From Candidatus Harpocratesius repetitus (GTDB lineage: Archaea > Asgardarchaeota > Lokiarchaeia > Sigyniarchaeales > Promethearchaeaceae): DNA of 32,000 nt. Each line of letters begins with the position of its first letter. The stretch's first letter is position 1. The stretch covers positions 1,740,001-1,772,000 of the forward strand of contig JAIZWK010000001.1 in the NCBI GenBank assembly GCA_021498095.1, written 5' to 3'. The notes beneath the pieces were generated by a model. That model was given only the letters and a program-made list of their open reading frames with translations. It searched no databases and was not told the origin of the DNA. The position numbers were made by a program, and so were the translations under genes. Positions 11,923 through 14,593 of the stretch are shown piece by piece.

Positions 11923-12615
11923 TCATTTATTAAGAGTTTTATACGAATAAACAATCCGTTGAATTAGTGTCCATGTGCATAGTGCACTAAAGATTAAAAA
12001 TAGAGCAGGAAACACCCAACGTATCTTGTGTTCACCCAAAATTTTTTCTTCTAGCGCAAACACTGCCCATTCGATAATATAAATAAATATTAAAATGAAA
12101 AATCTTTCAGCTCGTTCCATAAAACCTATTCCTTTCATGGAAATACCTTCAATTTCAGCTCTCGAACGGGTATATGAAATCATTAGCATTACTGTTAAAG
12201 TAAAAATACCAATTAAATAGTTAATTGTCGAATTCCAAGGCCAGATTATACCTCCAAACATTAACCCCATCATTGAAACTGCATCTGCAATCCTATCTAG
12301 TGTACTGTCTAAAAAAGCGCCGTACTTTGAAACCTTTCCAGATTTTCGTGCTACGGAACCATCCAATACGTCAATGTATCCTGATAAAAAGAATAGCCAA
12401 GGAGGAACACACGCCCACCACCACCAAATATTGGGAGTGATATAAGAATAATTATATAAAAATACAGAAGGAAAAGCAAATGCCACGCCTGCCAGAACTG
12501 AAAGAGCAAATCCGAATAAACTCAACTGGTTGGGGGTTATGTGATGCTTAATACACCATCGACTGGGGCCATCAACAAATTTTGGAAGTAGATAGCGATA
12601 ATTATTTAAAACCAT
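11923..12615 (-). CDS. CDP-alcohol phosphatidyltransferase (archaetidylinositol-phosphate synthase-like)
   Basis: ITPNQLS, the motif DVLDGSVARKSGKVSKYGAFLDSTLDRIAD, SYTRSRAE and GFMERAER, with multiple TM helices. Confidence 0.92.
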   Translation of the reverse strand: MVLNNYRYLLPKFVDGPSRWCIKHHITPNQLSLFGFALSVLAGVAFAFPSVFLYNYSYITPNIWWWWACVPPWLFFLSGYIDVLDGSVARKSGKVSKYGAFLDSTLDRIADAVSMMGLMFGGIIWPWNSTINYLIGIFTLTVMLMISYTRSRAEIEGISMKGIGFMERAERFFILIFIYIIEWAVFALEEKILGEHKIRWVFPALFLIFSALCTWTLIQRIVYSYKTLNK

Positions 12616-12757
12616 AATTTCGACCCTTTTTTATTTACAATCTAATTAAGAATACAAAATTAATAAGGTATCTTAAAGTAATTACAGAATTAATGGCAGA
12701 AAATAAGCTTTAGAAATAGAAAGAATCGAATAGATTAATAGTATAAAGAGTATTAAG

Positions 12758-13082
12758 GCATGATCTGTATCCGTTTTATAACCTTTGCGATCATTGTTAG
12801 GAAAAACCTAGTGCTCTCGCAACCTCTTCTCTAAAAACGGAAAATATGATTCATGCGGGCCAATATTTCTTGTTGCGGAGTAGGGTTGCTGACGATCTCA
12901 TCATTGCAAGCTCACGGCTGCCTCAGAGATGAGCCTAATTTCCGACTTAAAGAAATATTAACTCGGGGTTGTTGTCAGGATGCTTATGCTCGAAAATTTC
13001 ATTCGGAGACTTGATACAGTCAATTAACCGTCTATCTCGTCCTCGGTATCACATGACAAAAAAACGACCCGTCATTGTTCCC
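12758..13082 (-). ncRNA. Candidate multi-hairpin box H/ACA pseudouridylation guide RNA
   Basis: Non-coding and GC-richer than its flanks. Two hairpins (12944-12871 and 12841-12766) each have a lower stem, an internal pocket, an upper stem with tandem GA K-turn motif, and ACA (12873-12871; 12768-12766) 14-16 nt from the pocket top. TATA/BRE lie upstream. Confidence 0.7.
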
Positions 13083-13104
13083 TAAATTTATTAAAAGAAT
13101 AAAA

Positions 13105-13119
13105 TTATATATTCCTTCT
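13105..13119 (-). promoter_or_regulatory. Putative BRE-TATA promoter of the ncRNA
   Basis: Minus strand AGAAGGAA-TATATAA, with the TATA centre about 26 nt upstream of GGGAAC at 13082. Confidence 0.5.
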
Positions 13120-13135
13120 TATGATAATTTTTTAC

Positions 13136-13151
13136 TGATCAAAGTTGATCA
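13136..13151. repeat. TGATCA-N4-TGATCA box (copy 1)
   Basis: TGATCAAAGTTGATCA. It matches the reverse complement of 14047-14062 at 15 of 16 positions. Confidence 0.55.
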
Positions 13152-13311
13152 ACCACTATCATTGGTGGTTATTACAATAATAGATTGAGAGTTTATAAAG
13201 TTTTGGAAAAAAATTGAAGAGATCTCGCCTAAAATATGCCTAAAATCCACTGATTTGGCAATTTCAAAGAATTGGATTGTAAAAAAAAATTAAAATCTCG
13301 GAAATATTATG

Positions 13312-13446
13312 CTATCCATCAAATCCTTCTTCATTTTCTTCGCTCTGCTGCTTAGTAATCGGAGTATCTTCAATTTTTTTGGAATTCTCAGTATTTGTTT
13401 CACCAGAAACTGGTAGTTCTTCTTTTTTGGTTTGTGCATCAGCCAT
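13312..13446 (-). CDS. Small acidic, low-complexity ORF (44 aa), not in the track
   Basis: MADAQTKKEELPVSGETNTENSKKIEDTPITKQQSEENEEGFDG*, ATG to TAG. Its E/K-rich composition resembles the real disordered regions in this window. Confidence 0.45.
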   Translation of the reverse strand: MADAQTKKEELPVSGETNTENSKKIEDTPITKQQSEENEEGFDG

Positions 13447-13458
13447 AATGATCAACCG

Positions 13459-13512
13459 TTTGATAGATTATGGTATATTTAAGGGTTATACGGTTTTGAT
13501 TTGATAGATTAT
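13459..13512 (+). repeat. 13-bp direct repeat TTTGATAGATTAT (13459-13471, 13500-13512)
   Basis: Two exact copies 41 bp apart, at the point where tnpA homology ends. Confidence 0.6.
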
Positions 13513-13513
13513 T

Positions 13514-14010
13514 GATTATCGATACATCAAAAATTCTGCAAACATATTCTAAAAACGGAAATCCGAATCTTGTGAGCCGATCCTTATTGGCGATCAGCAC
13601 CTGTGCCACCTTTCTCTGCACAATTTGCTACATCAGCCGCCACAACCCTCTGCGCATCGGATTCAAGCCTGAACCGTATTCTTTAATAATTTTTGCAGGT
13701 GATTCCTCAGTAAAATGCTCTTTGTGATATTTTTTCAAGCGTTCAACTTGTCTGTCAAGATTTCCATCCTTTTCTGTTTGGCAGATGAGACTCTGGCATA
13801 AACATAGGTCGATTTTACCGTTTCCTCCGCTTGTTGGCATGGAAGATTAACCGATTCGGGCAGAAAATCCGCCAACTGTTCCTATAAGTATCGGCGGTGA
13901 TTTCCAAATGTCCTTTTAGGAACGAGGTATCCTTTTTTATCCCATCTGCGTAGAGTTGCGGGAGTAACTCCAAGAAGGCATGAAGTTTCGGAGATAGTTA
14001 GTATAGAATT
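13514..14010 (-). pseudogene. tnpA: IS607-family serine recombinase/transposase TnpA, decayed and 3'-truncated, with no tnpB
   Basis: Reconstructed reading: LTISETSCLLGVTPATLRRWDKKG...GNHRRY (MerR-like HTH), stop TAG 13884-13882, YARVSSAKQK, frameshift near 13770, DGNLDRQ...IKEYGSGLNPMRRGL, stop TAG 13630-13628, then NKDRLTRFGF. No start codon is visible. Confidence 0.9.
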
Positions 14011-14046
14011 AAATTTGGGGAAGATCTATATAAATTAAGCGATCAA

Positions 14047-14062
14047 TGATCAAGTTTGATCA
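14047..14062. repeat. TGATCA-N4-TGATCA box (copy 2), with a third partial GATCA at 14041
   Basis: TGATCAAGTTTGATCA, just upstream of the tnpA remnant and its TTTATATA box. Confidence 0.55.
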
Positions 14063-14188
14063 AAAATTTTTTTGCTGTTGATAAGTTTCATTATAGTTAA
14101 TATGTTGATCTAAATGATATCGTGATATTATTTGGATATCTCCTAAATATTAACCGAATCTAAATCAATCAATATTTTTTGGTTTTAT

Positions 14189-14593
14189 ATGGCATTCCCT
14201 GAAAGTGCAGTGGAAAAATATAATACAAATTCTGATGTAAAAATTAATGAATTAGAAAATGCGAATCAGGGTCTTCTAACACGCCAAATGCTTCAGAAAT
14301 TTACTTACTCAATTAAGAAGTGTTTTCCCACATGTGTGGCGACGGTTTTGACCGATCCTCATGGATTTCCTGTTTATTCTGAAATTGAAGCCGATTTGGA
14401 TGAAAATTTACTCGCACTTAGTGCCATTGAAGAACGGCGCAAATTTCTTGATTTGCATGAGTATCACAAGATTATTAAACCAGTCGGAAAAGAAATTCGA
14501 ATGATAATTCTTCTCAAAAAAGCAAGGCAAAACTACGTGCATTACGGCAATTTTGAGCGAACTTTCAAATATCATGCTAAACAGATGGGTTAG
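14189..14593 (+). CDS. Hypothetical protein, possible Roadblock/LAMTOR-like domain
   Basis: A helix (LTRQMLQKFTYSIKK), then CVATVLTDPHGFPVYSE and LDENLLAL, resemble the roadblock alpha-beta-beta-alpha start. Confidence 0.55.
   Translation: MAFPESAVEKYNTNSDVKINELENANQGLLTRQMLQKFTYSIKKCFPTCVATVLTDPHGFPVYSEIEADLDENLLALSAIEERRKFLDLHEYHKIIKPVGKEIRMIILLKKARQNYVHYGNFERTFKYHAKQMG

Follow-up and report, generated by a model that had tools for sequence, protein, structure and literature searches.

A probable box H/ACA guide RNA gene with three H/ACA motifs in the archaeon Candidatus Harpocratesius repetitus

The locus and its predicted RNA

We analysed a window of 32,000 nucleotides from Candidatus Harpocratesius repetitus (contig JAIZWK010000001.1), and positions below are those of the window unless a contig label is given. 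The minus strand of this window carries a candidate gene for an RNA of about 325 nt, which lies between a phosphatidyltransferase gene and the gene for Gar1. The features referred to throughout are as follows.

11923..12615, minus strand: CDP-alcohol phosphatidyltransferase gene, downstream of the predicted RNA
12755..13083, minus strand: whole predicted RNA, about 325 nt; sharp conservation edges in eight relatives, GC island, no ORF
12758..12765, minus strand: 3' strand of basal helix ES3, GAUCAUGC; the predicted RNA ends just after it
12766..12841, minus strand: hairpin HP3 (hairpin B); covarying helices 6-9
12848..12859, minus strand: CCC (12859-12857, helix a'), then the 5' strand of ES3, GCAUGAAUC (12856-12848)
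12862..12870, minus strand: 3' strand of basal helix ES2, AGAAAUAUU, directly after the ACA of HP2
12871..12945, minus strand: hairpin HP2 (hairpin A); covarying helices in both alignments
12951..12959, minus strand: 5' strand of ES2, AAUAUUUCU; pairs with 12870-12862
12957..12969, minus strand: box-D-like strand of K-turn Kt-0, namely ACCCC (NC-stem), GA and GUU (C-stem)
12970..13058, minus strand: hairpin HP1, H/ACA unit 1; covarying helices 4-6
13065..13083, minus strand: 5' leader with helix a and the box-C-like strand of Kt-0; covarying helices 1-3
13105..13112, minus strand: TATA-like box AUAUAUAA, 23-30 nt upstream of GGG at 13082-13080
14189..14593, plus strand: orf134, an ORF of 134 aa
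15675..16115: Gar1 gene

The GC content is 44-45% across the element and 23-31% in its flanks. Neither strand holds an ORF of 60 aa or more within the element and no reading frame is conserved, and the idea that the element is a coding region was thus rejected. The element is present as a single copy in its own genome. To judge from conservation, the RNA would begin near AGGG and end right after the last helix, ES3, which is followed by a U-rich tail here and by T-runs in relatives. A TATA box and BRE had been placed about 26 nt upstream of 13082 by a first-pass annotation made from the sequence, and these elements are recognisable: the AUAUAUAA box is preceded by a purine-rich, BRE-like stretch, and relatives have UUAUAAAU-type boxes at an equal distance upstream. 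This arrangement suggests a promoter role for the AUAUAUAA box and transcription of an RNA of about 325 nt.

The order gar1-tfb-orf134-RNA is kept in the family of Ca. H. repetitus (f1) and partly in a second family of the same order (f3), and is tight in relatives. The distance of 2.6 kb from gar1 given in the first-pass annotation is correct for the window, but it is due to an insertion of about 1 kb (13100-14100) which splits the RNA from orf134. In a relative of the same genus the insertion is absent, and the RNA and orf134 are about 60 nt apart. The insertion holds a second GC island (13525-13975), a series of short ORFs on the minus strand whose frame shifts from one to the next. One of them gave a sub-threshold match to the Resolvase N-terminal domain (E = 0.049), and an LRRWDKKG-type N-terminal HTH can be seen by eye; this is probably a decayed IS607-like serine recombinase. 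A 30-nt AT-rich repeat with tgatcaaagttgatcaa lies at 13116-13150 and has about ten further copies scattered in the genome. Across the insertion, at 14047-14065, is a similar sequence, tgatcaagtttgatcaaa, and the two may mark the ends of a small mobile element. The ORF orf134 retrieved no Pfam or NCBIfam match; in f1 and f3 alike it is a conserved neighbour of the RNA gene and of tfb.

Searches for known RNAs and homologues

No Rfam match was found at gathering thresholds across the whole window, and a search of 12400-14400 at E values up to 10 retrieved no H/ACA, SRP or RNase P family. Because there is no Rfam H/ACA match, the RNA would represent a new sequence family. A match to SRP or RNase P RNA had been named in the first-pass annotation as evidence that would speak against a guide RNA; no such match was seen, and both RNAs were located elsewhere in the genome at full length (RNase P RNA at C1:709938-710219 and SRP RNA at C1:720759-721076), so the possibility that the element is either of them was rejected. 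As a side observation, these two RNAs score below the Rfam gathering cut-offs (58.5 bits against 84 for RNase P RNA, and 73.9 bits against 96.5 for SRP RNA), and standard annotation would therefore miss both in this lineage.

Eight relatives from the family of Ca. H. repetitus were retrieved by BLAST; their matches are 71-76% identical and have sharp edges. When genome and metagenome collections were scanned for exact patterns, the hits fell again in just three genera: Promethearchaeum species including P. syntrophicum MK-D1, Candidatus Lokiarchaeum ossiferum, and MAGs of the genus of Ca. H. repetitus. Two covariance models were then used, one covering HP2 and the 3' domain (R1) and the other covering the 5' domain (R2). 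These returned homologues, all of them full-length, in 9 of 13 cases in f1, 11 of 132 in f3 (with strict filters), and 12 of 19 in f14, a family related to f1 at the phylum level only, where the homologues come from 12 of the 15 genomes of one genus. The models thereby add a fourth genus of f1 and at least three genera of f3; in the other families searched with them, under Infernal's stricter filters, no homologue was found. By covariance model, full-length homologues of the predicted RNA are present in three families of the phylum.

Predicted architecture and covariation

The predicted structure comprises three H/ACA hairpins (HP1-HP3) set in a frame of extra helices and a fourth K-turn. From 5' to 3', the RNA begins with helix a (GGG/CCC) and Kt-0, within which HP1 is nested, and continues with ES2 around HP2 and ES3 around HP3. 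Each of the three hairpins has a P1 helix, an internal loop, a P2 helix of 5-7 bp, an N-GA strand facing NNU-GA, a covarying capping stem, and an ANA box after P1. The first-pass annotation had proposed a multi-hairpin RNA, and the two hairpins that it described, A and B, are borne out as HP2 and HP3; it had missed the third hairpin, HP1, and the fourth, C/D-like K-turn.

Helix a, in which GGG at 13082-13080 pairs with CCC at 12859-12857, links the first two units. The leader side of Kt-0 consists of an AAC C-stem, an AAU bulge, GA sheared pairs and a CGGG NC-stem, and the facing box-D-like strand is CUGA in f3. The basal helices ES2 and ES3 are 8-9 bp long. Since these helices and the K-turn enclose the motifs, each ANA box comes to lie in an internal loop.

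Two alignments of f1 and f3 sequences were used for the covariation counts. For the 5' domain (19 sequences), 90.0% of cells are paired, against 36-43% when the partners are slid, and 45 of 52 pairs show compensatory changes, with a covariation score of 0.576 against 0.08-0.11 in the slid controls. For HP2 and the 3' domain (22 distinct sequences), 92.0% of cells are paired against 35-44% when slid, with compensatory changes in 32 of 43 pairs. Over both alignments, 77 of 95 pairs show compensatory changes, a count to be read in the knowledge that alignments made with covariance models are fitted to the structure being tested; a sequence-only MAFFT and RNAalifold analysis of 19 sequences of both families recovered the HP3 helices alone. 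The f14 homologues were inspected by eye, outside these counts, and show the same helices.

By element, the leader helices 1-3 have 83-93% of cells paired and compensatory changes in 10 of 13 pairs, and in the P1 and P2 helices of all three hairpins 84-97% of cells are paired and almost every pair shows compensatory changes. Both ES2 and ES3 have 95% of cells paired, and compensatory changes are found in all nine pairs of the former and in five of nine in the latter. The P1 and P2 stems and the C-stems of the K-turns covary in related genomes and the ANA boxes are mostly kept; the first-pass annotation had named a lack of conservation or covariation in stems, K-turns and ACA as grounds for abandoning its reading. 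On its own, the single sequence does not fold significantly more stably than its shuffled versions (z of -1.36 and -1.55), and support for the element therefore comes from comparison rather than from energy.

The first fold returned by RNAalifold was a different one, in which the 5' end (GGG..UGAC) pairs with the 3' pocket of HP2 (GUCA..CCC) and GAGUU pairs with AGGCUC. The partners in this fold are 85% complementary, which equals the shuffled expectation, and sequence variation breaks the pairing without covariation; it was rejected as a conserved fold. Its complementarity arises because both partners are conserved, and it may be an alternative conformer.

The three hairpins as H/ACA motifs

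H/ACA RNAs are recognised by hairpins of the form P1-pocket-P2, with a K-turn or K-loop containing tandem G:A pairs after a P2 of 5-7 bp (PMC7991803, PMC7075261), and by an ANA box directly 3' of P1, whose A's are invariant and whose middle base is variable and which serves as the family signature (PMC7991803). All three hairpins have the P1-pocket-P2 form, as well as the K-turn or K-loop pattern GA ... NNU-GA with a covarying C-stem. In archaeal guides the K-turn or K-loop typically sits 5-6 bp above the pocket, with the distal G:A pair 9-10 levels from the base of P2. Here the distal G:A pair stands at level 8-9, above a P2 of 5-7 bp, or at level 10 for HP3 when two pocket-top nucleotides are counted. 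The ANA box is found in all sequences for HP1 and HP2, and for HP3 in the RNA of Ca. H. repetitus but not in every homologue.

HP1 is more canonical than hairpins A and B. Its P1 is UGUCA/UGACA, its pocket strands are at 13053-13040 (5') and 12990-12978 (3'), and its ACA is at 12972-12970. GA at 13032-13031 faces AAU-GA at 13003-12999 in the K-turn, the apical hairpin is variable, and in f3 the upper motif is a K-loop. P1 varies among homologues as UGUCA/UGACA, GGUCA/UGACC, CGCAU/AUGCG, GCCAAUC/GAUUGGC and GCCAU/AUGGC, the ANA is ACA, AUA or AAA in 19 of 19 sequences, and neither of the pocket cores, CGAGG and GCA, varies.

In HP2, P1 is (U)CGGA/UCCG(C), at 12944-12941 and 12879-12876, and P2 is AUCUC/GAGAU, at 12930-12926 and 12899-12895. 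The K-turn is formed by CUGA and AAUGAUGA (CUGA at 12926-12923, AUGAUGA at 12904-12898) and bears a capping hairpin; its second G:A pair is degenerate in part of f3. The 5' pocket ends in AGGCUC, the 3' pocket contains an invariant GCAACCC, and ACA is at 12873-12871. P1 is found as CGGA/UCCG or CAGA/UCUG and, in other families, as CUGCAAA/UUUGCAG, AUCCUG/CAGGAU or CCCCG/CGGGG, and the ANA is ACA, AUA or AGA/AAA in all sequences, with two fixed A's and a free middle base. The pocket cores GCAACCC and RGGCUC are kept in all three families and are the most conserved part of the RNA.

HP3 has the P1 UCCGUUUU/AAAACGGA (12841-12834 and 12777-12770) and the P2 UUGCG/CGCAA (12822-12818 and 12789-12785), and GA at 12816-12815 faces AAU-GA at 12795-12791 beneath an apical stem. 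Its 5' pocket contains GAGAAGA and its 3' pocket GUUA. All the motifs that had been described for hairpins A and B lie on the minus strand where the first-pass annotation put them, including the ACA of hairpin B at 12768-12766. This ACA is not general among the homologues: the box is ACA or AUA in the genus of Ca. H. repetitus, ACA in genus g7, and ACA or AAA in f3, but it is lost in genera g5 and g6 (Lokiarchaeum and Promethearchaeum), which have UCA, and in f14, which has AGCA. Lokiarchaeum and most Promethearchaeum copies (L012, L013 and others) also have an extra small hairpin between ES3 and HP3 (columns 245-262 of alignment A1), and these are the same genera in which UCA replaces the ACA of HP3; a metagenomic Promethearchaeum-like copy (L035) has no such hairpin.

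Distances from pocket to ANA of up to 17-19 nt are tolerated in Haloferax volcanii (PMC7075261). The spacings beyond the classical 15 +/- 1 are those of HP1, at 17 nt in Ca. H. repetitus, and HP2, where the top of the pocket is 18-21 nt from the ACA. We know of no ANA box flanked by a further helix that binds Cbf5.

In addition to the Gar1 gene in the window, genes for Cbf5, Nop10 and L7Ae are present elsewhere in the genome. The reading of the element as an H/ACA-type guide, first suggested from the single sequence, is supported by P1, pocket, P2, K-turn and ANA, by their covariation, and by the presence of these protein genes. We consider it likely that the gene encodes a box H/ACA-type guide sRNA of about 325 nt with three H/ACA motifs. 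Each motif would be expected to bind one protein set and to present its internal loop as a pseudouridylation pocket, giving a compact multi-helix RNA which would probably carry four copies of L7Ae. Protein binding and catalysis by such an RNP are proposed by analogy with known H/ACA systems.

Predicted rRNA targets

We scored every U of the LSU and SSU rRNAs of Ca. H. repetitus against the pocket strands of 13-14 homologues, with reversed guides as controls. Among HP1-HP3, only HP1 has a statistically clear rRNA target. Bipartite complementarity of at least 8 bp flanking UN was found for HP1; for HP3 it was not above the control, and for HP2 there was no conserved rRNA site.

The HP1 site is LSU U2616, with a mean score of 9.07 over 14 homologue guides, against 7.46 for the next site and 2.95 for the best reversed-guide control. 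The cores GCA and CGAGG pair with the UGC and CCUCG that flank UU in UGC-UU-CCUCG of the LSU rRNA. Guides of f3 and f14 form 4+8 bp (12 bp) with the site, with UN unpaired and the top pair 14 nt from the ACA; the RNA of Ca. H. repetitus itself forms 3+5 bp, followed by 4-5 more past one mismatch. The pocket-to-ANA distance is correspondingly 14 nt in f3 and f14 and 15-17 nt in f1. Five LSU rRNAs, drawn from both families, share the same target sequence. From these pairings, HP1 most likely guides pseudouridylation of LSU U2616.

The conserved motif CGAUGUCGG places this position at E. coli 2496, which lies in the peptidyl-transferase ring. Using the conserved flanks, we take U2616 to be equivalent to yeast 25S U2865 (Psi2865). 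As a consistency check, this mapping has a C at the place of yeast m5C2870, which is close by. Yeast 25S U2865 is pseudouridylated under snR46 (PMC5699541).

For HP3, the top-ranking site is in helix 69 (U2041, E. coli 1915), yet the reversed-guide controls score as high. In a pairing model for this site, one pocket strand contributes GUUA, opposite UAAC, and the other GAGAGA or AAGAGAG, opposite UCUCUU (a helix of 6-7 bp in f3 and f14); UAUA(AC) stays unpaired, and the spacing is 14 in Ca. H. repetitus and 16 in f3. The unpaired target stretch resembles that of SL2 in H. volcanii sR-h45, which makes Psi1940 and Psi1942 in helix 69 from an unpaired UVUN and so leaves more than two target bases unpaired (PMC7075261). 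Action of HP3 on helix 69 (U2041 and U2043, E. coli 1915/1917), a match that is not above background, is put forward as plausible.

For HP2, no conserved canonical rRNA target was found among all U's of the LSU and SSU rRNAs of Ca. H. repetitus with conservation checks in five LSU rRNAs. Several candidates were considered and rejected. Pairing with U2674 (E. coli 2554) in the A-loop is 4+3 bp in f1 and 4+6-7 bp in f3 and fails in f14. The best score was obtained for SSU U796, but this position is an A in L. ossiferum. For LSU U1862, U2748, U1815 and U2818, the target sequence is not conserved whereas the guide is, and three of the candidates other than U2674 and U796 lie in variable regions of the rRNA. 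Checks of target conservation in SSU rRNA are limited, since several of the MAGs have rRNA operons that are split or have not been assembled; at one f3 locus (L072, G042:C2:450044-451002), the SSU match covers model positions 4-828 and ends at the contig end.

A separate observation concerns the 16-nt sequence GGGGTTGCTGAGAGCC, which is the exact complement of the 3' pocket core of HP2 joined to its 5' pocket core. Two identical copies are present in the genome (L076 at C1:2054785-2054800 and L077 at C1:2061784-2061799), each inside a duplicated minus-strand ORF of 102 aa, and no copy was found in 40 relatives. The match may be due to chance, may mark a species-specific substrate, or may be a relic of the RNA gene.

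Alternative explanations

We consider it unlikely that the element is an L7Ae-binding RNA which uses the H/ACA fold but is mainly non-modifying, for example a folding or processing chaperone of pre-rRNA like snR30/U17 or snR10, whose pockets would dock on the LSU precursor. Such a role would suit the pocket of HP2, which is the most conserved across three families yet has no canonical UN target, and it would suit an RNA that forms one compact particle of many helices and four K-turns; the best sites of HP1 and HP3, in the peptidyl-transferase ring and helix 69, would also be late-folding regions. The textbook guide geometry of HP1 in f3 and f14, with 4+8 bp, an unpaired UN and a distance of n+14, nevertheless argues for modification; nothing speaks positively for a chaperone role, and no complementarity to the spacers was found.

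The fourth K-turn raises the question of whether the RNA is a composite of C/D and H/ACA types, in which Kt-0 would be a working box C/D that recruits Nop5-fibrillarin and guides 2'-O-methylation. Kt-0 does have AAUGA(N) facing (C/U)NGA beside the terminal stem; the helices on both of its sides, the C-stem and the NC-stem, covary, and in f3 its strands, AUGAUGG or AUGAAGG and CUGA, come near the consensus of a C/D K-turn. There is, however, no C'/D' pair, in f1 the D-like box has decayed to CCGA or CUGG, and the 10-12 nt upstream of that box are the 3' strand of HP1 P1 and its ANA box (ACA), which leaves no free C/D guide. With neither a C'/D' pair nor a free guide, the RNA was not classed as a C/D guide, and we regard a working box C/D as very unlikely.

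We give hardly any credence to the element being a structured 5' leader or cis-regulator of the downstream phosphatidyltransferase gene. Although about 140 nt separate the end of the RNA from the start of that ORF and this neighbour is conserved in f1, the RNA is still conserved at f3 loci that have no phosphatidyltransferase neighbour, U-rich tails follow the last helix, and the element has the anatomy of a guide RNA rather than of a leader. Finally, a non-functional origin, as a decayed gene or chance GC island, would agree with the single-sequence z values but has practically no probability, being refuted by covariation (compensatory changes in 77 of 95 pairs) alongside conservation in three families with no conserved reading frame.

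A guide RNA with three H/ACA motifs thus remains our preferred reading. Beyond it, we would give a small chance to a more speculative picture, in which the RNA forms a single pre-organised particle of three Cbf5 modules and four L7Ae, possibly with Nop5-fibrillarin on Kt-0, that would dock on the nascent LSU at two places at once, the peptidyl-transferase ring and helix 69, with the invariant but target-less middle pocket being non-modifying as in snR30 or snR10.

Relation to known systems and implications

Three-hairpin H/ACA RNAs occur in Pyrococcus and Archaeoglobus. Similar to archaeal multi-hairpin H/ACA sRNAs with two or three motifs, such as sR-h45 of H. volcanii, the RNA described here has several motifs, each with P1-pocket-P2, a K-turn or K-loop and an ANA after P1, and its predicted rRNA targets are in LSU domain IV/V. 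It differs from them in its length (about 325 nt rather than about 200 nt), in having no sequence or Rfam relationship to them, in the extra basal helices or K-turn that enclose its motifs and put the ANA into an internal loop, in the fourth K-turn outside the hairpins, in pocket-to-ANA distances of up to 17-21 nt, and in having one motif with no recognisable target.

The likeness to yeast snR46 seen here lies in the predicted target site, which is homologous by our mapping from conserved flanks (the first U of UU before C(C/U)UCGAUGUCGG); snR46 itself is a eukaryotic hairpin-hinge-hairpin RNA without K-turns. Eukaryotic U85-type scaRNAs combine an H/ACA domain with a C/D-type K-turn that frames it and has a terminal stem. 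The RNA described here shares this arrangement, although the likeness is architectural only: its C/D-like motif comes without C'/D' boxes, a free guide or Cajal-body signals. The departure of HP3 from the canon in g5 and g6 recalls the atypical H/ACA-like sRNAs of Pyrobaculum, in which, as they are cited in PMC7991803, the ACA or the lower stem is missing (Bernick et al. 2012); those are short single hairpins, whereas here P1 is kept and the ANA mostly kept.

We found no described H/ACA guide RNA for Asgard archaea in Rfam or in the literature searched. Asgard archaea encode the full H/ACA protein set, and the RNA provides a concrete guide candidate in the cultured MK-D1 and L. ossiferum. Its unusual architecture could explain why standard H/ACA searches miss such genes, and the ANA boxes in internal loops, the C/D-type K-turn framing an H/ACA unit, and the four K-turns would widen the known forms of H/ACA RNA. 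The predicted pseudouridine shared with yeast Psi2865 is relevant to the question of what part of the eukaryotic rRNA modification map is older than eukaryotes themselves, and the RNA as a whole bears on the origin of snoRNPs. If the picture of a pre-organised particle were true, that particle would be an archaeal precursor of both the composite and the assembly-type snoRNPs of eukaryotes.
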